DNA of 63,352 bases from Chloroflexota bacterium (GTDB lineage Bacteria; Chloroflexota; Dehalococcoidia; SM23-28-2; RBG-16-64-32), in assembly GCA_036741795.1 (NCBI GenBank), contig DAINRO010000001.1, positions 1 through 63,352 of the forward strand, read 5' to 3'. Shown here piece by piece: positions 1 to 10,544 of the stretch. Within the stretch, counting starts at the first letter, position 1, and each line of letters opens with the position of its first letter. The notes beneath the pieces are model-generated. The model did not search any database. It saw only the letters and a list, made by a program, of their open reading frames with translations, and was not told where the DNA came from. The position numbers were made by a program, and so were the translations under genes.

Positions 1-410
1 TTGCCTCCCGCGGCCTCCTCGGCGGGAGTGCCGATGACCTGTACCGTGCCGCCGCCGGCGTCGGCGAGAAGGTCTTTCACGGCGATGCCGGCGGCGCAGG
101 CGGCGGTGCCAATTATGTTGTGGCCGCAACCGTGACCGACACCGGGCAGGGCGTCGTATTCGGCGACGAAAGCGACACGTGGGGAGCCGCTGCCGATGGT
201 AGCGTTGAAGGCGGTCGGCAGTTCGCAAACACCGCGGTCGACGCGAAAGCCGTTGGTCTCAAGGAAGTCCTCAAGCATCGCGGCGGACTTGTGCTCTTCG
301 TAAGCGGGCTCGGGGGTTTCGTGGATGCGGAGGGAGAGGGCGATAAGTTCATCGCGTCGGGCGTCGATGGTTGAGATAGCGCGGGTCTTGAGTTCGCTCG
401 CGTCGGTCAT
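1..410 (-). CDS. M20-family metallopeptidase/amidohydrolase (AbgB-like), N-terminal part; 3' end lies off-window
   Basis: Not in the ORF track because it runs off the window. My translation from ATG (410-408, minus strand) gives MTDASELKTRAISTIDARRDELIALSLRIHETPEPAYEEHKSAAMLEDFLETNGFRVDRG...EYDALPGVGHGCGHNIIGTAA. The GHxCGHN motif and layout are typical of M20D amidohydrolases. Confidence 0.7.
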   Translation of the reverse strand, partial: MTDASELKTRAISTIDARRDELIALSLRIHETPEPAYEEHKSAAMLEDFLETNGFRVDRGVCELPTAFNATIGSGSPRVAFVAEYDALPGVGHGCGHNIIGTAACAAGIAVKDLLADAGGGTVQVIGTPAEEAAGG

Positions 411-1012: not shown

Positions 1013-1042
1013 TTGACTTTTGTGTCTGACGACGGGTAGCAT
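1013..1042 (+). promoter_or_regulatory. candidate sigma70 promoter for the SAM-riboswitch transcript
   Basis: TTGACT (1013-1018), 18-nt spacer, TAGCAT (1037-1042), about 20 nt upstream of the riboswitch P1 helix. Confidence 0.45.
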
Positions 1043-1233: not shown

Positions 1234-2286
1234 GTGTTTGAACCTATCGAATGGACCGCAAAGAACCGCGTGCGGTTTCTCGACCAGACGCGCCTTCCGA
1301 AGGAGGAGGTGTGGGTGGAGACCGCCGAGGTCGAGGTGCTGGCGGAAGCGATCCGGAGCCTGCGGGTACGCGGCGCTCCATTGATCGGCATTGCGGCAGC
1401 CTACGGGATTGCGGCCGTGGCCGCTCATTCGCGCGCGCCCATCAAGGATGCGCTCCTGGCCGAGATCTGGGACGCGGCGGGAAAGCTGCGTGAGACGCGG
1501 CCGACGGCGGTGAACCTTTCGTGGGCGATTGACCGGATGCTGGACAAGGTCGGCACGGTGACGGATGTGCTTACGATTAAGGCAGCGCTGGAGGAGGAAG
1601 CAATCGCGATCCATCGGGAGGACGTCGCGGCGTGTGAGCGAATCGGTGCATACGGGGCTGAATTGATCCGCGCCGGCACGACGATCCAGACTCACTGCAA
1701 CGCCGGTGCTCTGGCGACCGGGGGATACGGGACGGCGCTGGGAGTGGTGCGCAGCGCCTGGAACGCGGGGAATCTCGAGGGAGTGATCGCGACGGAGACT
1801 CGTCCGCTGCTCCAGGGAGCGCGCTTGACGGCGTGGGAGCTGGCTCGGGACGGAATACCCGTGTCCCTGATCCCCGACAGTGCGGCAGGACATCTGATGA
1901 GCCGTGGTGAAGTCGGAGCGGTGGTTGTGGGGGCGGACCGGATCGCGGCGAACGGAGATACTGCGAACAAGATTGGCACCTACCAGCAAGCGGTATTGGC
2001 GAGGGAGAACGGCATCCCGTTCTACGTCGCAGCTCCTTTGAGCACCATCGATCTTGAGACGACATCCGGCGAAGGGATTCCAATCGAGCAGCGCGATTCG
2101 GATGAGGTTAAGGCGTTCGGCGGGGTTACGGTGGCGGCGGACGGTGCGGCGGTACTCAATCCAGCGTTCGACGTGACACCGGCGAGGTTCATCAGTGCAA
2201 TCGTCACGGACGCGGGAGTCGCCAGGGCCCCATACCAGACGAGCCTGGCAACTCTGTTCCGGGAGAAGGCGGTCGCACGTGGCTAA
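1234..2286 (+). CDS. mtnA: S-methyl-5-thioribose-1-phosphate isomerase
   Basis: 350 aa, eIF-2B alpha/beta/delta-like (LDQTRLP..., RVRGAPLIGIAAAYG, GADRIAANGDTANKIGTY). GTG start with GGAG 9 nt upstream. Confidence 0.9.
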   Translation: MFEPIEWTAKNRVRFLDQTRLPKEEVWVETAEVEVLAEAIRSLRVRGAPLIGIAAAYGIAAVAAHSRAPIKDALLAEIWDAAGKLRETRPTAVNLSWAIDRMLDKVGTVTDVLTIKAALEEEAIAIHREDVAACERIGAYGAELIRAGTTIQTHCNAGALATGGYGTALGVVRSAWNAGNLEGVIATETRPLLQGARLTAWELARDGIPVSLIPDSAAGHLMSRGEVGAVVVGADRIAANGDTANKIGTYQQAVLARENGIPFYVAAPLSTIDLETTSGEGIPIEQRDSDEVKAFGGVTVAADGAAVLNPAFDVTPARFISAIVTDAGVARAPYQTSLATLFREKAVARG

Positions 2287-3163
2287 CGGCGAAATACGGG
2301 CTGCGGTCATAGGCGGCAGCGGCTTCTATCAAATGGAGGGGTTGAGCGACACGGAGTCGCTCACGATTGGCACGCCCTTCGGGCCGACAAGCGATACGAT
2401 CACGGTGGGGACACTGGATGGCCAACGCGTAGCGTTTTTGCCGCGCCACGGCGTCGGCCACAGGCTGCTGCCGTCGGAGATACCAGCGCGCGCCAACTTT
2501 TGGGCGCTGAAGTCGCTGGGTGTGGAGTCGGTGATCAGCGTGAGCGCCGTGGGGAGTCTGCGCGAGGACATCGAGCCGCTTCACATGGTGGTGCCGGACC
2601 AACTGATCGACCGGACGCGAGGGCGTACGTCGACGTTCTTTGGCGATGGAATCGTCGCCCACGTGGCTTTCGGCGATCCGTTCTGCCCCCAACTTCGCGG
2701 TCTTCTCACGGGTGCGGTGCGGGAGACCGAGGCAACCGTGCACAACGGTGGCACTTACGTCGTAATGGAAGGCCCGGCCTTCTCGACGCGGTCTGAATCG
2801 AGCCTGTATCGGACGTGGGGCGCCGATGTCATCGGGATGACGGCGCTGCCTGAAGCCAAACTGGCGCGAGAAGCAGAGATATGCTTCGCAGTGCTGGCAT
2901 GTAGTACCGACTACGACTGCTGGCGCGAAGGCCACGAGGACGTCACGGCGGACATGATCGTAGCGAACTTGTTCCAGAACGTGGACGTGTCCCGGCGCGC
3001 CGTGAGGACGGCCCTGCAACGACTGCCCGGGGAGCGAACGTGCGGCTGCGGCAGCGCGTTGGAGACGGCGATCGTGACGTCGTGGGACCTGGTCCCACGC
3101 GAGACACAAGAGCGGCTGGCACCGATAATTGGCAAGTACGTGGAACAGAAGGTAACCGGATGA
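2279..3163 (+). CDS. mtnP: S-methyl-5'-thioadenosine phosphorylase
   Basis: Track ORF 2195-3163 trimmed to GTG at 2279 (VANGEIRAAVIGGSGFY...), which overlaps the mtnA stop by 8 nt. Contains FLPRHGVGHRLLPSEIPARANFWALKSLGV and AVGSL...VVPDQLIDRT, both MTAP-type. Confidence 0.88.
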   Translation: MANGEIRAAVIGGSGFYQMEGLSDTESLTIGTPFGPTSDTITVGTLDGQRVAFLPRHGVGHRLLPSEIPARANFWALKSLGVESVISVSAVGSLREDIEPLHMVVPDQLIDRTRGRTSTFFGDGIVAHVAFGDPFCPQLRGLLTGAVRETEATVHNGGTYVVMEGPAFSTRSESSLYRTWGADVIGMTALPEAKLAREAEICFAVLACSTDYDCWREGHEDVTADMIVANLFQNVDVSRRAVRTALQRLPGERTCGCGSALETAIVTSWDLVPRETQERLAPIIGKYVEQKVTG

Positions 3164-4053
3164 CGGCCGTTTCCCGCGAAGGTGACTCCGCGAAGGCGAT
3201 CTACACGGTCGAACAGCTAAGCGACCGCGATGAAATCCGCGCGATGCTCTCGCAGGAGAGAGCTTATTCCGCGTACGCCCTGGCGCAGCTCGATCAGCGG
3301 ACGTTCTACGACGCTGAGTGGGTGCTGTCGCGGGGATCCGACGGCGAGCAAGCCCTGCTCGTGCACTCCTACGGCGGGCTAGGCCCGGCCCTCTTCGCGA
3401 TAGGAGACCCCGCAGCGCTGGATGTGGCGATGGGATTGCACCCCGGAGCGCGCTTTTCCTTCGGAAGTTTGCGCATGGAGCACAGGCCTGTCGTCGAGAA
3501 GCACTACGCAATTAGCAGGCCACGAACGATGCAGCGGATGCAGGTGACGGCGGAAAGCTTCCACCCCGTCCACGGCCCGGCTGTGCGACTGGAATCGGGC
3601 GATCTGTCGTTAATCAACAAGCTGTATTCGCAAGAAGGTACGGCGACAGCCTATCGGGCGGAACACCTGGAGCACGCCGTCTATTGCGGCGCTTTCGTGG
3701 GTGGGCAGTTGGTGGCGATTGCAGGCACGCACACGTTCTCCCGGTCGCAGCGGGTGGCAGTGGTGGGGAACGTCTATACGCACCCGGAGTACCGCGGGCG
3801 AGGAATGGCCACGGCGGCGACCTCCGCGGTGACGGCGGAACTGGTGCGTTCGTGTGATCTCGTGGTCCTGACGGTGGAGGCCGACAATAGTCCGGCGCTC
3901 GCGGTGTACGAGAAGCTGGGATACGAGTACGTATGCAACATGCACGAGACGCCCCTGGTGCGCAAGGAGCCCGTAGGCGTGCTGAGCTTCGCCCGGAGGA
4001 CGATGGCGACGTGGCGAGGCCGGAAAGTGGGTAAGGAGGTTGTGATTCGATGA
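3160..4053 (+). CDS. GNAT-family N-acetyltransferase (two-lobed, FR47-like C-terminal domain)
   Basis: ATG at 3160 overlaps the mtnP stop (ATGA). The C-terminal VVGNVYTHPEYRGRGMATAATSAV...NSPALAVYEKLGYEY is the GNAT acetyl-CoA (Q/RxxGxG/A) motif region. Confidence 0.75.
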   Translation: MTAVSREGDSAKAIYTVEQLSDRDEIRAMLSQERAYSAYALAQLDQRTFYDAEWVLSRGSDGEQALLVHSYGGLGPALFAIGDPAALDVAMGLHPGARFSFGSLRMEHRPVVEKHYAISRPRTMQRMQVTAESFHPVHGPAVRLESGDLSLINKLYSQEGTATAYRAEHLEHAVYCGAFVGGQLVAIAGTHTFSRSQRVAVVGNVYTHPEYRGRGMATAATSAVTAELVRSCDLVVLTVEADNSPALAVYEKLGYEYVCNMHETPLVRKEPVGVLSFARRTMATWRGRKVGKEVVIR

Positions 4054-4658
4054 CGAAGCATATAGGAATTGTCCTGTTCAAGGACTTCGAGGATTTGGAC
4101 GCGATTGGGCCTCGGGAAGCGCTGACGATGATGGCGAAGGGGACAGGCGGTGAGTGGGAAGTGGTGCTGATAAGCGAGGATGGCAAGGCAGTCCAGTCCT
4201 TCCTTGGGACTCGGTACCTGGTGGACTACAGCTACGAGAATTGTCCAGCGCTGGACGTGATCCTGGTGCCGGGGGGATTGGGTACTCGGGCCGAGATGAA
4301 CAACCCCAAGCACATCGAGTTCGTGCAACGGCAGGGGAACAACGCCGACTGGGTCACCTCGGTCTGTACCGGCGCGCTGGTACTGCACAAGGCCGGGTTC
4401 CTGGAAGGGAAGCGAGCGACCACCCACTGGGGCTCGATCGCGGAGTTGCAAAACCTCGGCGGCGACACAACGGTAGTAAATGACGAGAGGTGGGTGCACG
4501 ACGGCAATGTGATCACCGCGGCGGGTGTGTCGGCGGGGATCGATATGTCGCTGTACCTGATAAGCCTGATCAAGGACCCTGCGACCGCGCAGCGCGTTCA
4601 ACAGATGATGGAGTACTACCCGAAGCCCCCGGTGTTCGAAGGGGCGGCGACCACATGA
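4050..4658 (+). CDS. DJ-1/PfpI family protein
   Basis: 202 aa. Nucleophile elbow VTSVCTGALVLHKAGFLEGKRATTHW and ITAAGVSAGIDMSL. The ATGA start overlaps the upstream gene. Confidence 0.8.
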   Translation: MTKHIGIVLFKDFEDLDAIGPREALTMMAKGTGGEWEVVLISEDGKAVQSFLGTRYLVDYSYENCPALDVILVPGGLGTRAEMNNPKHIEFVQRQGNNADWVTSVCTGALVLHKAGFLEGKRATTHWGSIAELQNLGGDTTVVNDERWVHDGNVITAAGVSAGIDMSLYLISLIKDPATAQRVQQMMEYYPKPPVFEGAATT

Positions 4659-5389
4659 CATTCTCGATCGCGGCTCGATGCCCGCGAACCGGGAATCTCG
4701 GCGTCGCAACGTCGAGCAAAGCGTTGTCGGCGGGCGGCCAGGTGCCGTACGTAAAGAGCGGCGTGGGCGCGATTGCCAGCCAGTCGTTCGTGAACCCGTA
4801 TCTCGGGATCGATGGGCTTGTACTGCTTGGGCAGGGATTGCCTGCGGAGCGCGTGCTGGACCGGTTGATCGAGGGCGACGCCGGCCGCGAACTGCGGCAG
4901 GTTGGAATCGTGGACAAGGAGGGGCGGACTGCGGCTTACACGGGCGAGCGGTGCATCAGGTGGGCCGGGGCGGTCACAGGTGCCGGGTATGTTTGCATCG
5001 GCAACATACTCGCCGGTGAGGAAGTGGTGAAGGAGATGGCATCATCGTTCGCGTTGAACGGGGACGAGGAATTGCCGCTGCGCCTTCTGCTCGCGCTGGA
5101 GTCGGGACAAGAGGCGGGTGGCGACAGGAGGGGTCGGCAGTCGGCCGGTATTCACGTCGTGGCCGACGAGGAATACCCATTGTGTGACCTGCGCGTTGAT
5201 GATCATGACGATCCTGTACAGCAGTTGCGCAGGGTGTACGAGGTATGGGAGCGGGAAGAGCTTCCCTTCCTGGGACTAGCGCCCATGCGGAATGACTTTA
5301 CGCCCGAATGGCAGACAGCGATCAGGCTGGGAGAAGAGATTGAAAACGAACTGGAAGAAGCAGAGAAGGTAAAGGAGAGCGCATGGTAA
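4655..5389 (+). CDS. DUF1028-family (Ntn-hydrolase fold) protein
   Basis: Track ORF trimmed to ATG at 4655 (ATGA overlap with the DJ-1 stop). [45 protein letters not shown] is the characteristic DUF1028 N-terminus, with Thr2 as putative nucleophile. Confidence 0.75.
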
Positions 5390-6660
5390 ACGTTGAGTCG
5401 ATCGTCGAGCACGACGTCAAGGACCTGGCACTAACCGAAGGCGGTGTGAATCGCATCGAATGGGCAGCCCGCGAGATGCCGGTGTTGCGGCTGATCCGCG
5501 AGCAGTTCGAGCGGGATAAGCCGCTGAATGGCGTGCGGGTCGCTGCCTGCCTTCACGTTACGACCGAAACGGCGAACTTGATGATCACGCTCAAGGCGGG
5601 TGGCGCTGAGGTGAGGTTGTGCGCGAGCAATCCGCTTTCCACGCAGGACGATGTAGCGGCGGCGCTCGTTTCGCGATACGGCATCTCAGTTTTCGCGATA
5701 AGGGGCGAGAACGACCCGACGTACTACAAGCACATCCATGCGGTCCTGGAGAACAATCCACAGATGACGATGGACGATGGGGCGGACCTGGTGGCGGTGC
5801 TTCACAAGGAGCGCAGAGAGGTCCTGGAGAGCGTCATTGGGGGAACGGAGGAAACGACGACGGGTGTGATCCGACTGCGGGCAATGGCGAAGGATGGAGC
5901 GCTGGGATACCCGATCGTTGCAATTAACGAAGCGAACACGAAGCACCTGTTCGACAACCGGTACGGGACCGGCCAAAGCACAATCGACGGAATCACACGG
6001 GCAACGAACGTGCTCTGGGCTGCAAAGCACGTTGTGGTGGCGGGCTACGGATGGTGCGGCAAGGGCGTGGCAATGAGGGCGCGCGGGTTGGGCTCGCGGG
6101 TGATCGTTACCGAGATCGACCCGATCAAGGCGCTCGAAGCGACGATGGACGGCCACGAGGTGATGACGATGGACGAGGCGGCCCGGCTGGGCGACGTCTT
6201 CATCACGCTGACGGGCGACACGAACGTCCTGGACCACCAGCATTTCGAGGCGATGAAGGACGGTGCGATCGTCGCTAACAGCGGTCACTTCAACGTAGAG
6301 ATCAACATCGCGGCGCTGGCGGACATGAGTGAATCGCGGCGCACCGTGCGGGACCATGTCGAGGAGTTCCGGACAATGGATGGGAGGAGCCTGTACCTAC
6401 TGGGAGAAGGCCGCCTGATCAACCTGGCGGCTGCCGAGGGTCATCCGGCGAGCGTAATGGACATGAGTTTCGCCAACCAGGCGCTGGCCGCGCAATTCCT
6501 GGCGAGCAGAGACGAGCGGCTGCCGGTGGATGTTCACACCGTGCCGCAAGAGATCGATAACGAGGTGGCACGCTTAAAGCTGACCTCGATGGGGATAGAG
6601 ATCGACGTGCTAACCGAGCAGCAGATGAAGTACCTGGCAAGCTGGGAAGAGGGGACCTGA
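5383..6660 (+). CDS. ahcY: adenosylhomocysteinase
   Basis: 425 aa. Contains [47 protein letters not shown] and SGHFNVEI. Confidence 0.95.
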
Positions 6661-6715: not shown

Positions 6716-7900
6716 ATGACGATGACGTTCATGAGCAGCCCATCGCTGCTTGTCACATCCGAGAGCGTGACGGAGGGGCACCCGGACAAGGTGTGCGACC
6801 AGATCGCGGACGCGATCCTGGATGAGATCATCCGGGCTGACCCAAACGCGCACGTAGCGTGCGAGGTTGTATCGACAACCGGACTCGTGCTGATCACGGG
6901 TGAGATTACGACGAGCCACTACGTGGACTTCACGGGCGTGGCGCGCCAGGTCATCGCCGATATCGGCTACACACGGCCAGAGTTCCAGTTCGACGCCGAG
7001 AGTTGCGGCGTACTGGTGTCGGTAAAGGAGCAGTCGTCTGAAATCAATGACGCTGTTGGTGACGATGAGGGCGCAGGCGACCAGGGATTGATGCTTGGTT
7101 TCGCCTGCAATGAGACGGCAGAACTCATGCCCCTGCCAATTCACCTCTCGCATGCCCTTTGCAAGCAACTGACGGTGGTGCGGAAGAGCGGCGCCCTCTC
7201 GTACCTGCGGCCGGACGGGAAATCCCAGGTGACGATCGAGTACCAGTTCGGGAAGCCGAAGCGCGCGAAGGCGATCGTGGTTGCCGCACAGCATGATCCG
7301 GGTACGGCGACCGAGAAACTGCAGGAGGATATCCGCCGCGAGGTCATCCAACCGGTGATGTCCGAGTGGATCGACGATGAGACCGAGATCCACATCAACC
7401 GGAGTGGTTCGTTTGTCCTGGGCGGTCCGGCGGCTGACTCCGGTCTTTCCGGCCGCAAGAACATCGTCGACACATACGGCGGTGTGGGTCGTCATGGCGG
7501 TGGTTCGTACTCCGGCAAGGACCCGTCCAAGGTGGACCGCTCGGGGTCGTACGCCGCGCGTTGGGTGGCCAAGAACCTGGTGGCGGCGGGGATCGCAGAT
7601 AGGTGCGAGGTGGAGCTTTCCTACGCAATCGGACACCCGCAACCGCTGGGAGTCTCGGTGGAGACCTTCGGGACCCACAAGATCGCTATTGGGGAGATCG
7701 ACCGGTTGGTACGGGAGACGTTCGACCTCAGCCCAACCGGGATCATCCGCGACCTGGACCTGCGTCGCCCGATCTACCTCCAGACGGCATCTTACGGTCA
7801 CTTTGGGCGATCGGACCTTGACCTGCCGTGGGAGAAGACGAACCGCGCTGATCAATTGAAGGCTGCCGCGGCCAGCCTGACCGCAGAGGCGACGGCTTAG
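6716..7900 (+). CDS. metK: S-adenosylmethionine synthase
   Basis: 394 aa. Contains [34 protein letters not shown] and [29 protein letters not shown] upstream. Confidence 0.96.
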
Positions 7901-7920: not shown

Positions 7921-8604
7921 TTGTTCGCACTCATCATCGCCGGCGGTGAAGGTGAGCGGCTTCGGCCGCTGACGAAGGACAGGCCGAAGAACATGGTGCT
8001 GGTCGCCGGGCGGCCAATCGTTGAGCACCAGCTGGATTGGCTGGCTTGCAACGGAGTGACCGACGTTGTGTTCCTGTGCGGCTACAAAGCGGAAGTCCTG
8101 GAAGCACACGTTGGCGACGGCTCGCGGTTTGGCGTCCGAGCCAGGTACTCACGGGAGGACGAACCTCTGGGCCGCGGGGGAGCGCTGCGATTGGGCGCAT
8201 CGCTTGTTCCACCGGATGAGGTGGAGGTGATGGCCTGCAACGGCGACATCCTCACCGACCAGTCGCTGGAACCGATCCTGGCGTACCACCGGGAGCGAGA
8301 TGCGGCCGCTACCGTCATGCTGGCGCCGCTGAGAAGCCCGTACGGGGTGGTTGACGTGGATGACGAGGGTCGGATCAGTGCTTTCCGCGAGAAGCCGGTG
8401 CTGCCGCACTGGATCAACGCCGGGATTTACGTTCTGGGCCGCGAATTCCTGGATCTTTTGCCAGAGAAGGGCGACCACGAGACGACAGTGTTCCCGAAGC
8501 TGGCCGATGAGGGAAGGCTATTCGGCTTCAAAAGCGAGGCGTACTGGCGGCCTGTGGACAGCATGAAGGACATCTCGGAAGCAGCCAAAGAGCTGGTGGG
8601 GTAG
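7921..8604 (+). CDS. sugar-phosphate nucleotidyltransferase (mannose-1-P guanylyl-/glucose-1-P nucleotidyl-transferase-like)
   Basis: 227 aa, TTG start. The N-terminus (M)FALIIAGGEGERLRPLTKDRPKNMV is the NTP_transferase G-rich loop. Confidence 0.8.
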   Translation: MFALIIAGGEGERLRPLTKDRPKNMVLVAGRPIVEHQLDWLACNGVTDVVFLCGYKAEVLEAHVGDGSRFGVRARYSREDEPLGRGGALRLGASLVPPDEVEVMACNGDILTDQSLEPILAYHRERDAAATVMLAPLRSPYGVVDVDDEGRISAFREKPVLPHWINAGIYVLGREFLDLLPEKGDHETTVFPKLADEGRLFGFKSEAYWRPVDSMKDISEAAKELVG

Positions 8605-8608
8605 TGCA

Positions 8609-10042
8609 GTGAGGACAGGCGAGTGCCCGATCAAGTTCGGGACGGATGGTTGGCGTGCGATTATCGCCGACGACTTCACGTTCGACAACGTCGCCGTCTG
8701 CGCACAGGGGACTGCTGAGTACGTCCGAAAGTCAGCCCTCGCGTCGCGAGGCGTCGTGGTTGGCTACGATACTCGGTTCCAGGCTGACGCCTTCGCTCGC
8801 GTCGTCGCCGAGGTCTTGACAGCCAACGACATCCCTGTGCTCCTCTGCGATAGCGCCGCGCCCACGCCGGTGATCGGCCACGCGATCGTGGCGAGAGAAG
8901 CAGCGGGATCGATAGTACTGACGGCGAGCCACAATCCCGCGGCGTACTGCGGATTCAAGGTGCGCACGTCGTACGGCGGCGCCGCGCCGCCTGAGACCCT
9001 CGTGGAGATCGAGGCGAACGCGCAGGCGGCGTGGACGAAGGAGGTGCCCCGGCGCGGCCTGGAAGATGCGCGTTCAAGCGGCCTCATCGAAATGATCGAT
9101 CCACGACCGGCTTACCTGGCGCACCTGGGAACGTTGGTTGACCTGGATGGCTTGCGGAACGCCGGGCTGAAAGTGGTCATCGATCCTATGCACGGCGCGG
9201 GAGCTGGCTATTTGAGCGAGCTTCTGTCAGGCGGCACGAACGAGGTGATGGAGATACGGGGTGAGGTGAACCCGGCGTTTCCGGGGATGCACAACCCGGA
9301 GCCGATTCAGCGCAACCTGGAGGTCACCGTCGATGCAGTGAGGGGGTTGGGTGCTGACGTTGCACTCTGCTCAGACGGTGATGCAGACCGCGTCGGAGTG
9401 ATCGATCATGAAGGTCGATTCGTGACGCAACTCGAGACTTACGCCCTCCTGGCCTATTACCGGTTGGAGGTCTGCGGCGCTCGTGGGGCATTGGTGAAAT
9501 CGGTAACGACGACGACCATGATCAACAAGCTGGGCGACCTGTACGGCGTGCCGGTGCACGAGACGGGGGTGGGGTTCAAGTTCCTGGGCCCGAAGATGAT
9601 GGAGACAGACGCGTTGATCGCGGGGGAGGAGTCTGGTGGGTTCGCGTTCAGGGAGCACCTGCCGGAGCGTGACGGAGTCCTGTCAGGGCTCTACGTGTTC
9701 GACCTGATGGCAAGGAAACGGGTGAGCCTTCCGGAGTTGATCAAGGAGATTCACAGCAAAGTCGGCCCTCATTACTACGACCGGATCGACATCACCATGA
9801 CGGAGGCGGAACGCGACCGAATTGCCGGGCTGCTGCCGTCGTTAGCGCCCGCCGAGATTGCCGGGCTGGCAGTTGAGCGGTGCGATAGGGACGACGGGAT
9901 GCGATTCGTGCTTGAGGATGGGCAGTGGGCCCTAATTCGGTTGTCCGGAACAGAGCCGTTGATGCGTATCTACACAGAGGTACACGAGGAGGAAGGGGTT
10001 CCTTTGGTGCTGGACGCGGTAAGGGAGATGACCGGAGCTTAA
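8609..10042 (+). CDS. phosphomannomutase/phosphoglucomutase
   Basis: 477 aa. Contains KFGTDGWRA, the active-site loop LTASHNPAAYCGFK, the metal loop CSDGDADRVGV and GEESGG. Confidence 0.9.
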   Translation: MRTGECPIKFGTDGWRAIIADDFTFDNVAVCAQGTAEYVRKSALASRGVVVGYDTRFQADAFARVVAEVLTANDIPVLLCDSAAPTPVIGHAIVAREAAGSIVLTASHNPAAYCGFKVRTSYGGAAPPETLVEIEANAQAAWTKEVPRRGLEDARSSGLIEMIDPRPAYLAHLGTLVDLDGLRNAGLKVVIDPMHGAGAGYLSELLSGGTNEVMEIRGEVNPAFPGMHNPEPIQRNLEVTVDAVRGLGADVALCSDGDADRVGVIDHEGRFVTQLETYALLAYYRLEVCGARGALVKSVTTTTMINKLGDLYGVPVHETGVGFKFLGPKMMETDALIAGEESGGFAFREHLPERDGVLSGLYVFDLMARKRVSLPELIKEIHSKVGPHYYDRIDITMTEAERDRIAGLLPSLAPAEIAGLAVERCDRDDGMRFVLEDGQWALIRLSGTEPLMRIYTEVHEEEGVPLVLDAVREMTGA

Positions 10043-10118: not shown

Positions 10119-10544
10119 CTAGCGCTTGGTGTACTGAGGCGCCTTGCGGGCGCGCTTCAGGCCGACCTTCTTGCGTTCCTTGACGCGCGGGTCGCGTGTC
10201 AGGAAGCCGGCAGCGCGGAGTTCCTTGCGGAGAGACTCGTCGTGCTTTAGAAGGGCTCGGGCGGTGCCGTGGGCGAGAGCGTCTGCCCAGGCGCTGATGC
10301 CGCCGCCCTTGATGAGGGCGACGATGTCGTACTTGGACTGCATGCCGGCGATCTCCAGCGGCTTGCGGATCTTGATCTGGTGGAGGTTACGGCTGAAGAC
10401 GTCAAGGTAAGGTTTTCCGTTGATCTCGATGGTGCCGCCGCCCTCGTAGAGGCGTACTCGGGCGACCGCTTCTTTTCGTCGGCCGGTCCCGAATATGTAC
10501 TTGCCGGGTCGTTGGGCGGGTTTAGTTGTCTCTTCGTCTGCCAT
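10119..10544 (-). CDS. rpsI: 30S ribosomal protein S9
   Basis: 141 aa, ends ...RKAPQYTKR; contains GGGISAWADALAHG. Confidence 0.95.
   Translation of the reverse strand: MADEETTKPAQRPGKYIFGTGRRKEAVARVRLYEGGGTIEINGKPYLDVFSRNLHQIKIRKPLEIAGMQSKYDIVALIKGGGISAWADALAHGTARALLKHDESLRKELRAAGFLTRDPRVKERKKVGLKRARKAPQYTKR

Follow-up and report, generated by a model that had tools for sequence, protein, structure and literature searches.

An S-adenosylmethionine-riboswitch operon of a Dehalococcoidia bacterium with a tandem GNAT gene linked to ahcY

The DNA analysed here, called the window below, is a stretch of 63,352 nt that forms contig 1 (DAINRO010000001.1) of a 2.4-Mb metagenome-assembled genome (MAG; GCA_036741795.1) of a Chloroflexota bacterium of the class Dehalococcoidia. 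The MAG consists of 139 contigs and is an estimated 89.6% complete, so that absences in this genome are not absolute. Three consecutive genes of the window, encoding a two-domain (tandem) GNAT, a DJ-1/PfpI-superfamily protein and a DUF1028 protein, lie inside an operon of S-adenosylmethionine (SAM) metabolism. This operon is a lineage-specific variant of a SAM-controlled recycling operon, and its most interesting element is the GNAT, which is linked to ahcY.

The operon is preceded by a SAM-I (S-box) riboswitch aptamer on the plus strand at positions 1064–1164, which an Rfam covariance-model search found at full length (RF00162, model positions 1–108 of 108, 82.7 bits; gathering score 44.4). 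Behind the aptamer, on the same strand, a hairpin and T-tract resembling a terminator (1174–1199, annotated to 1209; terminator scan and reading of the sequence) probably form the expression platform of the riboswitch. The downstream genes, all on the plus strand, are mtnA for S-methyl-5-thioribose-1-phosphate isomerase (1234–2286; TIGR00512, 422.5 bits against a cut-off of 279), mtnP for the phosphorylase of methylthioadenosine (MTA) and probably also of 5′-deoxyadenosine (2279–3163; TIGR01694, 318.1 bits against 274.85), the gene of the 297-aa GNAT, a predicted acyl-CoA N-acyltransferase (3160–4053; PF00583, 53.3 bits against 20.7), that of the DJ-1/PfpI protein, which belongs to the isocyanide hydratase (ICH/InhA) clade (4050–4658; PF01965, 109.6 bits), that of the DUF1028 protein, which has the N-terminal nucleophile (Ntn) hydrolase fold (4655–5389; PF06267, 237.8 bits against 26.2), ahcY for S-adenosylhomocysteine (SAH) hydrolase (5383–6660; TIGR00936, 645.8 bits against 497.6) and metK for SAM synthetase (6716–7900; TIGR01034, 538.7 bits against 309.4). 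The gene for adenine phosphoribosyltransferase, apt, lies upstream of the riboswitch on the same strand (470–1006; NF002636, 227 bits against 125). The mtnA and mtnP reading frames overlap by 8 nt (GTGGCTAA), the mtnP/GNAT, GNAT/DJ-1 and DJ-1/DUF1028 junctions by 4 nt each (ATGA), and DUF1028 and ahcY by 7 nt (ATGGTAA); a purine-rich stretch of the AGG/GGAG type precedes most starts in the operon. An earlier note, made from the sequence alone, had described this gene order, overlaps of 4–8 nt at every junction from mtnA to ahcY and apt upstream, and the profile and Rfam searches and the sequence itself bear out all three. The operon thus unites phosphorolysis of MTA or 5′-deoxyadenosine, isomerisation, SAH hydrolysis and SAM synthesis under one SAM riboswitch.

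To examine the genomic setting of the GNAT, a degenerate-pattern scan was run over one genome per species, which gave 248 relatives. Among the best 80 loci, which were examined, all belonged to Dehalococcoidia/Chloroflexota except one contig binned to a Hyphomicrobiales MAG, and they included the cultured Tepidiforma flava YIM 72310. The GNAT gene lay between mtn/pfkB genes and ahcY in all 80; at L083 and L097 mtnP was missing upstream and GNAT still stood beside ahcY. A profile (A2) built from 61 GNATs matched 143 of 401 Chloroflexota genomes, and 40 of these loci were fetched. In 19 of the 20 best-scoring ones (35–47% identity) GNAT was clustered with ahcY/metK/apt or with the nucleotidyltransferase and phosphohexomutase genes that follow metK in the window. 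Two families have the order apt-GNAT-ahcY-metK and lack mtnA and mtnP over about 6 kb around it, and the orthologues of other Chloroflexota classes in such mtnA/mtnP-free clusters show 35–41% identity. Further arrangements were apt-mtnA-GNAT-ahcY-metK, mtnA-pfkB-GNAT-ahcY-metK and mtnA-(346-aa protein)-pfkB-GNAT-(archaeal-type methionine adenosyltransferase)-ahcY-metK, and Tepidiformaceae carry an extra pfkB-family kinase gene between mtnP and GNAT. In several of the phylum-level loci the GNAT stop codon overlaps or abuts the ahcY start; in two families GNAT, the nucleotidyltransferase gene and the phosphohexomutase gene are directly adjacent. Distant members of the GNAT family (≤36% identity) have unrelated surroundings, and no GNAT-AhcY gene fusion was seen in 62 loci. 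The adjacency of GNAT and ahcY thus survives insertions of pfkB, of the archaeal-type methionine adenosyltransferase gene and of DJ-1/DUF1028, the loss of mtnP and the relocation of metK. GNAT is thus stably associated, throughout the phylum, with ahcY and the SAM cycle rather than with the product of MtnA.

DUF1028 and DJ-1 have a much narrower distribution in this operon. In the window's family, 33 of 37 genomes have DUF1028; among 22 genomes from the remaining families of the order, a single one does. Of 20 DUF1028 loci that were fetched, 19 share the order apt, mtnA, mtnP, GNAT, (DJ-1), DUF1028, ahcY, metK, nucleotidyltransferase, phosphohexomutase; in the last one, which comes from a different family of the class, DUF1028 is flanked by none of these genes. 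Three of the fetched loci are without DJ-1, and two carry a tandem duplication of DUF1028. DJ-1 is missing while DUF1028 is kept at L008/L057, L013/L072, L014, L069, L071 and L073, several of them in the window's own family, and in the sister-family genome G016 DUF1028 is inserted in the absence of DJ-1. Sixteen loci centred on mtnP were also fetched (14 from sister families, two from the window's family). In 13 for which the sequence sufficed, mtnA, mtnP, GNAT, ahcY and metK follow one another with nothing between; one of these 13 (G024) is from the window's own family and has neither DJ-1 nor DUF1028 there. GNAT is present in every operon locus examined in the order. In the window's family, DUF1028 and DJ-1 are thus insertions that separate GNAT from ahcY; G016 has the DUF1028 insertion alone. 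DJ-1 is dispensable and less conserved than either of the other two genes. The three differ in history and are not one evolutionary unit or pathway module. Of the gene-neighbourhood check proposed in the earlier note, the expected conservation of the arrangement in relatives was found; the trio did not behave as a unit, and GNAT occurs without mtnA or mtnP.

These distributions bear directly on the interpretation given in that note, in which the three proteins would fill the slot of the steps that consume methylthioribulose-1-phosphate (MTRu-1-P) or 5-deoxyribulose-1-phosphate, as a new branch replacing MtnB, MtnC and MtnD, the RuBisCO-like protein (RLP) route or the aldolase of the dihydroxyacetone phosphate (DHAP) shunt. 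The position of the genes directly 3′ of mtnA-mtnP, their translational coupling, the lack in the order of any RLP, acireductone dioxygenase (ARD) or MtnB-scoring protein and the fact that most genomes of the window's family have no class II aldolase of the stand-alone kind all agree with such a branch. Nearly all sampled sister families, however, have mtnA-mtnP without DJ-1 and DUF1028, GNAT orthologues adjoin ahcY in clusters that have neither mtnA nor mtnP, elsewhere in the phylum DUF1028 stands apart from mtn genes, and two genomes (G010 and G016) carry GNAT and DUF1028 together with a stand-alone class II aldolase. Moreover, an N-acyltransferase, a Cys hydratase and an Ntn amidohydrolase would offer no obvious way to cleave a ketose 1-phosphate, and none of the three folds is known to cleave or dehydrate ketose phosphates. 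The different histories, the occurrence of GNAT without mtnA/mtnP, the co-occurrence with an aldolase and the unsuited folds make this branch highly improbable, and the slot assigned to the trio is mostly unsupported. The interpretation of the earlier note as a whole is partly supported.

The fate of the MtnA product was examined by a genome-wide search for salvage enzymes in the window's genome and 20 relatives (21 genomes). None of the 21 encodes an RLP/MtnW (PF00016), and ARD/MtnD (PF03079) gave no match above the cut-off in any of them. No protein of the window's genome qualified as MtnB (TIGR03328/NF006672), its sole PF00596 match being an aldolase/short-chain dehydrogenase fusion, and the class II aldolases of the relatives reached 40–61 bits on TIGR03328 against a cut-off of 137. 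Canonical salvage is thus absent as far as MtnB, MtnD and RLP are concerned, in agreement with the earlier note, which had found no recognisable downstream enzymes in the window; MtnC, MtnX, MtnK and MtnN were not searched. The genome search did bring up a class II aldolase outside the operon. Its domain (Aldolase_II), the sole one of this kind in the genome, lies in a partial open reading frame (ORF) on contig C123, which in relatives is a bifunctional aldolase/short-chain dehydrogenase of about 690–730 aa that scores just short of the TIGR02632 cut-off (531.8 against 567.75 bits). A class II aldolase, one per genome, occurs in 18 of the 21 genomes of the order and in all 10 that are at least 90% complete. 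In the sister families it is a stand-alone protein of 180–250 aa that does not reach the MtnB model; most genomes of the window's family are without a stand-alone one. Across the order the aldolase co-occurs with GNAT, and in G010 and G016, where it is stand-alone, with DUF1028 as well.

The aldolase encoded elsewhere is a candidate DHAP-shunt aldolase. The DHAP shunt consists of MtnP (or MtnN and MtnK), MtnA and Ald2 and acts on MTA and 5′-deoxyadenosine in Rhodospirillum rubrum and in extraintestinal pathogenic (ExPEC) Escherichia coli (PMC10986504). The window resembles this system in that MtnP and MtnA are both present, each above its model cut-off, and adjacent, and in that apt recycles the adenine. 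It differs in that the operon contains no ald2, the sole class II aldolase being encoded elsewhere and fused to a short-chain dehydrogenase, and in the addition of ahcY, metK, three uncharacterised genes and SAM-I riboswitch control. Because the canonical genes are absent as far as they were searched (MtnB, MtnD and RLP), an aldolase route is the simplest fate of the ketose 1-phosphate. MtnP and MtnA would yield MTRu-1-P and/or 5-deoxyribulose-1-phosphate, which would most likely be taken by a DHAP-shunt-type class II aldolase encoded elsewhere, and the fused short-chain dehydrogenase could also reduce the released aldehyde. Spermidine synthase (SpeE) is missing from the window's family and has a patchy distribution in the order, and 5′-deoxyadenosine from radical-SAM enzymes may therefore be the main substrate of MtnP. 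In regard to homocysteine, two tandem core-MetE-like genes (about 330–370 aa; C3:48617–50604) are the sole methionine-synthase candidates of the genome, and a MetH-type homocysteine methyltransferase is absent from 20 of the 21 genomes, the window's included; homocysteine remethylation is possible because the two core-MetE-like genes are present.

A 346–361-aa protein ('LATGIGSLPH.DPEAAC...') encoded between mtnA and pfkB in two other families (L128:1658–2695 and L138:5065–6150) has no Pfam or NCBIfam match and is a candidate for the step after MtnA that is better placed than the trio. The pfkB-family kinase genes directly upstream of GNAT in several families (L092:7036–7950, L110:7019–7969, L130:1424–2371 and L138:4075–5064) reach no NCBIfam equivalog; the N-terminus of the kinase in the mtnA-pfkB-GNAT-ahcY-metK loci looks like that of mycobacterial adenosine kinase. 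The window's genome has a pfkB copy of 40% identity elsewhere (C66:2020–2922). The archaeal-type methionine adenosyltransferase (NF003363, 655 bits; L128:4744–5955) stands between GNAT and ahcY in one family, and bacterial metK is also present in that operon.

The GNAT protein matches PF00583 at residues 166–255 only. Its YRGRGMA segment, which fits the R/Q-x-x-G-x-G/A pattern for binding of the acyl-CoA pyrophosphate and is conserved as RGxG in the family, together with the Pfam score places it in the GNAT superfamily. The acyl-CoA motif VVGNVxTHPxYRGRG and Tyr250 are conserved in the C-terminal half only, and the N-terminal pseudo-GNAT domain has conserved residues R27, Y36, H94 and R126; these Arg, His and Tyr residues suggest a small anionic ligand. 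In an AlphaFold2 model (mean predicted local distance difference test, pLDDT, 93), the best whole-length template-modelling (TM) scores were obtained with bovine glycine N-acyltransferase (GLYAT; 0.58–0.62, with 0.61–0.62 for 7PK1), 1SQH and 3EC4, and the lowest structural E-values with 3EC4, VipF, MshD and glucosamine N-acetyltransferases. Like GLYAT (bovine, 7PK0/7PK1), MshD (1OZP/2C27) and glucosamine N-acetyltransferase 5KF1, the protein consists of two GNAT-like halves with the acyl-CoA motif in the C-terminal one only, with TM-scores of about 0.6 over the whole length. It differs from these tandem enzymes by an identity of only 10–16% and by its genomic link to ahcY. The likeness to GLYAT is one of fold and architecture at 10–11% identity, and the GLYAT Pfam families (Gly_acyl_tr_N/C) are not matched. 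No NCBIfam equivalog was reached (bits/cut-off: rimI, 31.2/86.4; MshD, 26.5/163.1; PRK03624, 28.2/124). The family comprises 523 clusters at 50% identity (E < 1e-30), which the sources label only 'RimI-like' or 'GNAT family', and we found no paper on it or linking a GNAT to S-box regulons in Chloroflexi.

The 'RimI-like' label and the tandem-GNAT fold of VipF, a protein acetyltransferase, would fit a GNAT that acetylates proteins, either in the manner of RimI or on lysines of AhcY or MetK, with DJ-1 and DUF1028 as unrelated housekeeping genes that ended up in a strongly expressed operon and no small-molecule pathway shared by the three. Such hitch-hiking would also agree with the variable contexts in which DUF1028 stands alone elsewhere, and the metK-nucleotidyltransferase-phosphohexomutase block is an example of a functionally mixed gene string that has been kept together in the phylum. 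We nevertheless regard this explanation as unlikely: the protein falls far short of RimI and reaches none of the other equivalogs, its adjacency to ahcY has been kept through many independent rearrangements across classes, and R27, Y36, H94 and R126 point to a small anionic ligand instead.

Three further roles of the GNAT were considered and rejected. Acetylation of polyamines does not match the distributions, spermidine synthase being absent from the family and GNAT present in every locus examined in the order. Disposal of dead-end homocysteine is not called for, as two core-MetE-type genes are present although MetH is absent. N-Acetylation of glucosamine phosphate for the nucleotidyltransferase and phosphohexomutase was considered in view of the direct adjacency of the three genes in two families and the fold matches with glucosamine N-acetyltransferases. 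GNAT stays with ahcY, however, when the metK-nucleotidyltransferase-phosphohexomutase block moves away, and a role in the synthesis of UDP-N-acetylglucosamine is unnecessary because nearly all genomes of the order have the GlmU acetyltransferase domain (stand-alone in 18 of 21, with a full-length GlmU in one more; C10:35381–35950 in the window's genome, 241.7 bits).

The DUF1028 protein matches the PDB entry 2IMH (E = 1.7e-20), and its model (pLDDT 87.7) superimposes on 2IMH (TM-score 0.77–0.86), then on proteasome beta subunits and HslV. Residue 2, directly after the initiator Met, is Thr in 35 of 35 sequences. The Pfam score, the Ntn fold and this candidate nucleophile make an amidohydrolase with an N-terminal threonine nucleophile plausible. 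SPO2555 of Ruegeria pomeroyi (2IMH), the only solved DUF1028 protein, shares the Pfam family, the Ntn fold and the Thr after Met; identity to it is about 30%, and the window's copy differs by a helical C-terminal extension of about 45 residues. The mention of DUF1028 found in the literature was unrelated, and nothing was found on its function. Elsewhere in Chloroflexota, in 20 further families, DUF1028 stands alone among variable neighbours, without DJ-1, GNAT or a SAM-cycle gene nearby; a recurrent DJ-1/DUF1028 pair was considered and dropped, the pairing not being seen in any of these families. Some genomes of the window's family have two or three tandem copies of DUF1028 (L005:8380–9853, L018:8534–10105 and L048, with three matches), the extra copies being 48–66% identical to the window's protein.

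The DJ-1 protein aligns with Pseudomonas ICH (6NI5/3NON) over 197 residues (E = 1.6e-41), and across 28 orthologues D17, C106 and T107 each show a conservation of at least 97%. In ICH, Cys101 is the nucleophile and Asp17 the general acid/base, and Thr102 also has a role (PMC10462001); the DJ-1 protein carries the equivalents of all three. The glyoxalase III/PfpI models were not reached (TIGR01383, 57.2 against 131.25 bits; TIGR01382, 54.2 against 139.05). The C-terminal 'EYxPxPP' segment is likewise shared with ICH/InhA of Pseudomonas (3NON, 6NI5), from which the window's protein differs in being encoded in a SAM operon and in its loss from several close relatives.

The closeness of DJ-1 to ICH with conserved Cys and Asp, the plausible amidase activity of DUF1028 and the amine acetylation typical of GNATs could be joined into a detoxification chain, in which DJ-1 would hydrate an isonitrile to an N-substituted formamide, DUF1028 would deformylate it and GNAT would acetylate the resulting amine. 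Hardly any weight can be given to this chain. It offers no reason for SAM-riboswitch control, DJ-1 is the gene of the three with the lowest conservation, GNAT long predates DJ-1 and DUF1028 in the operon, and the latter two are unpaired elsewhere in the phylum. Furthermore, no isonitrile synthase is found among the named operon genes, the rest of the window not having been searched.

Upstream of apt and divergent from it, the window edge cuts the 5′ part of an ORF for an M20D-type amidohydrolase (3–410, minus strand). A full-length orthologue of 395 aa (L042:4038–5219, minus strand) reaches TIGR01891 (210.6 bits against 153.75). The gene is divergent from apt/mtnA throughout the window's order, and is not found in this position in Tepidiformaceae or other classes. 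The amidohydrolase could serve the GLYAT-like GNAT as a deacylase partner, which fits a logic of acylation and deacylation. Bacillus subtilis has routes of the SnaA/SndA type, a precedent for a cycle of N-acyl sulfur amino acids. A cycle of this kind, in which GNAT would acetylate an S-substituted homocysteine or cysteine or a methionine analogue and M20D and, in the window's family, DUF1028 would deacylate it after processing, would also account for the GLYAT-like fold of GNAT, the conserved divergent M20D gene, the Thr1 amidohydrolase signature of DUF1028 and the S-box control, which ties the genes to methionine supply. On the other side, M20D is linked within one order only, and the linkage of DUF1028 is confined to the window's family plus a single genome of a sister family; moreover, the operon encodes no oxygenase or lyase for a blocked intermediate, without which acetylation followed by deacetylation would be futile. 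We consider this cycle rather improbable.

A broader possibility is that the GNAT is a new core enzyme of the SAM cycle in Chloroflexota, which would N-acylate homocysteine, SAH or a like by-product, the N-acyl or N-formyl product then being processed or recycled by DUF1028, M20D and the ICH-like protein. We hold this to be possible but doubtful. If true, DUF1028 would gain its first biochemical role, and under SAM scarcity the acylation of a by-product of the AhcY step could pull the unfavourable equilibrium of SAH hydrolase or render a toxic analogue harmless.

The reading that we favour, and consider reasonably probable as a whole, is a more restrained one: an operon of the SAM cycle and of by-product recycling, in which GNAT is tied to SAH/homocysteine turnover and DUF1028 and DJ-1 are add-ons. 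The host is an uncultured Dehalococcoidia bacterium of groundwater or sediment in which low SAM would cause the SAM-I riboswitch to turn on an operon that recycles the by-products of SAM use. GNAT, an old phylum-wide companion of ahcY that is often translationally coupled to it, would N-acylate a small amine or amino-acid-like metabolite of SAH, homocysteine or methionine turnover, or a toxic analogue, and would not act on MTRu-1-P. DUF1028 and DJ-1 would add hydrolysis or hydration of C–N bonds under SAM control, possibly on the N-acyl product of GNAT.

Several points weigh against this reading. The chemistry proposed for all three proteins rests on fold and neighbours. The GNAT-ahcY link is suggestive and is not proof of a shared pathway, because synteny within one phylum can persist by descent, and GNAT could instead be a protein acetyltransferase, VipF being among its fold matches. 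The tight ATGA coupling from mtnP through GNAT, DJ-1 and DUF1028 to ahcY could also reflect a function shared by the three proteins. The aldolase/short-chain dehydrogenase fusion adjoins TldD/PmbA-like genes and neither mtn nor rhamnose genes, and the source genome is a MAG of roughly 90% completeness.

SAM recycling is universal, and the pathways of its by-products (MTA, 5′-deoxyadenosine and SAH) are still being completed, the DHAP shunt being a recent addition. The idea of a three-enzyme replacement of MtnB–D gives way to a sharper lead, an acyltransferase family tied to SAH hydrolase throughout a phylum, some carriers of which (Tepidiforma) are culturable. DUF1028, a large family without known function, is found here in a defined genetic setting under SAM control. 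Should the GNAT act on a small molecule of the SAM cycle, a textbook pathway would gain a new step; otherwise, the operon is a lineage-specific mosaic.

The riboswitch itself was found before the operon at 9 of 10 tested loci of the window's order and in two other families. It was undetected before the orthologous operon in one sister family, in Tepidiforma flava and in several other classes (L025 of genome G013, L092, L131, L134, L136 and L144), and S-box control of the operon is therefore common and not universal. The mtnKA/mtnWXBD and metK leaders of B. subtilis are examples of the S-box (SAM-I riboswitch) regulon. The operon resembles the S-box operons of Firmicutes in having a SAM-I aptamer and a terminator-type platform before methionine-salvage and SAM-synthesis genes. 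It differs in that a lone riboswitch appears to control about 9 kb of genes in one string, in which MTA salvage, SAH hydrolysis and SAM synthesis are combined with three uncharacterised enzymes and two sugar-phosphate genes. A promoter-like sequence, TTGACT-18-TAGCAT (1013–1042, plus strand), lies upstream of the riboswitch as a pattern match only in a consensus scan, and apart from the hairpin after the aptamer and a weak site inside apt (650–665) no plus-strand terminator-like site was found up to position 10400. All occurrences of the window sequence were in metagenomic DNA, from groundwater and freshwater sediment. The orthologous operon of Tepidiforma received zero reads from two hot-spring metatranscriptomes, and one run marked 'RNA?' gave flat, DNA-like contig coverage that came from a related strain.

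Downstream of metK, the string continues with a gene for a short sugar-1-phosphate nucleotidyltransferase of 227 aa (7921–8604, plus strand; PF00483, 132.7 bits, no NCBIfam equivalog reached) and one for a phosphohexomutase of the PGM/PMM/GlmM family with four PGM_PMM domains (8609–10042, plus strand), the latter being the sole tblastn match of its kind in the genome. Since GlmU is split in this genome and no second copy of the phosphohexomutase was found, the 227-aa protein may be the missing uridylyltransferase half of GlmU and the phosphohexomutase may act as GlmM. On rearrangement of the operon, metK and these two genes move as a block (L114, L127 and L141).

Many genomes of the window's family, though not the window itself, have an ORF of 88–118 aa without a Pfam match in the interval from GNAT to DJ-1 (for example L041:4802–5089, L042:8891–9187, L045:8928–9194 and L046:8891–9432, the last with two copies). 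Its conserved stretch, 'I..LHKKHP.LGHEGL...L...G..VD..EL..FL', is presumably akin to the helix-turn-helix region of IS3-type transposases, which would hint at the route by which DJ-1 and DUF1028 arrived. In three relatives, a tRNA-Sec gene lies about 5–6 kb from the operon (L028:16254–16346, L030:16697–16789 and L032:17192–17284).

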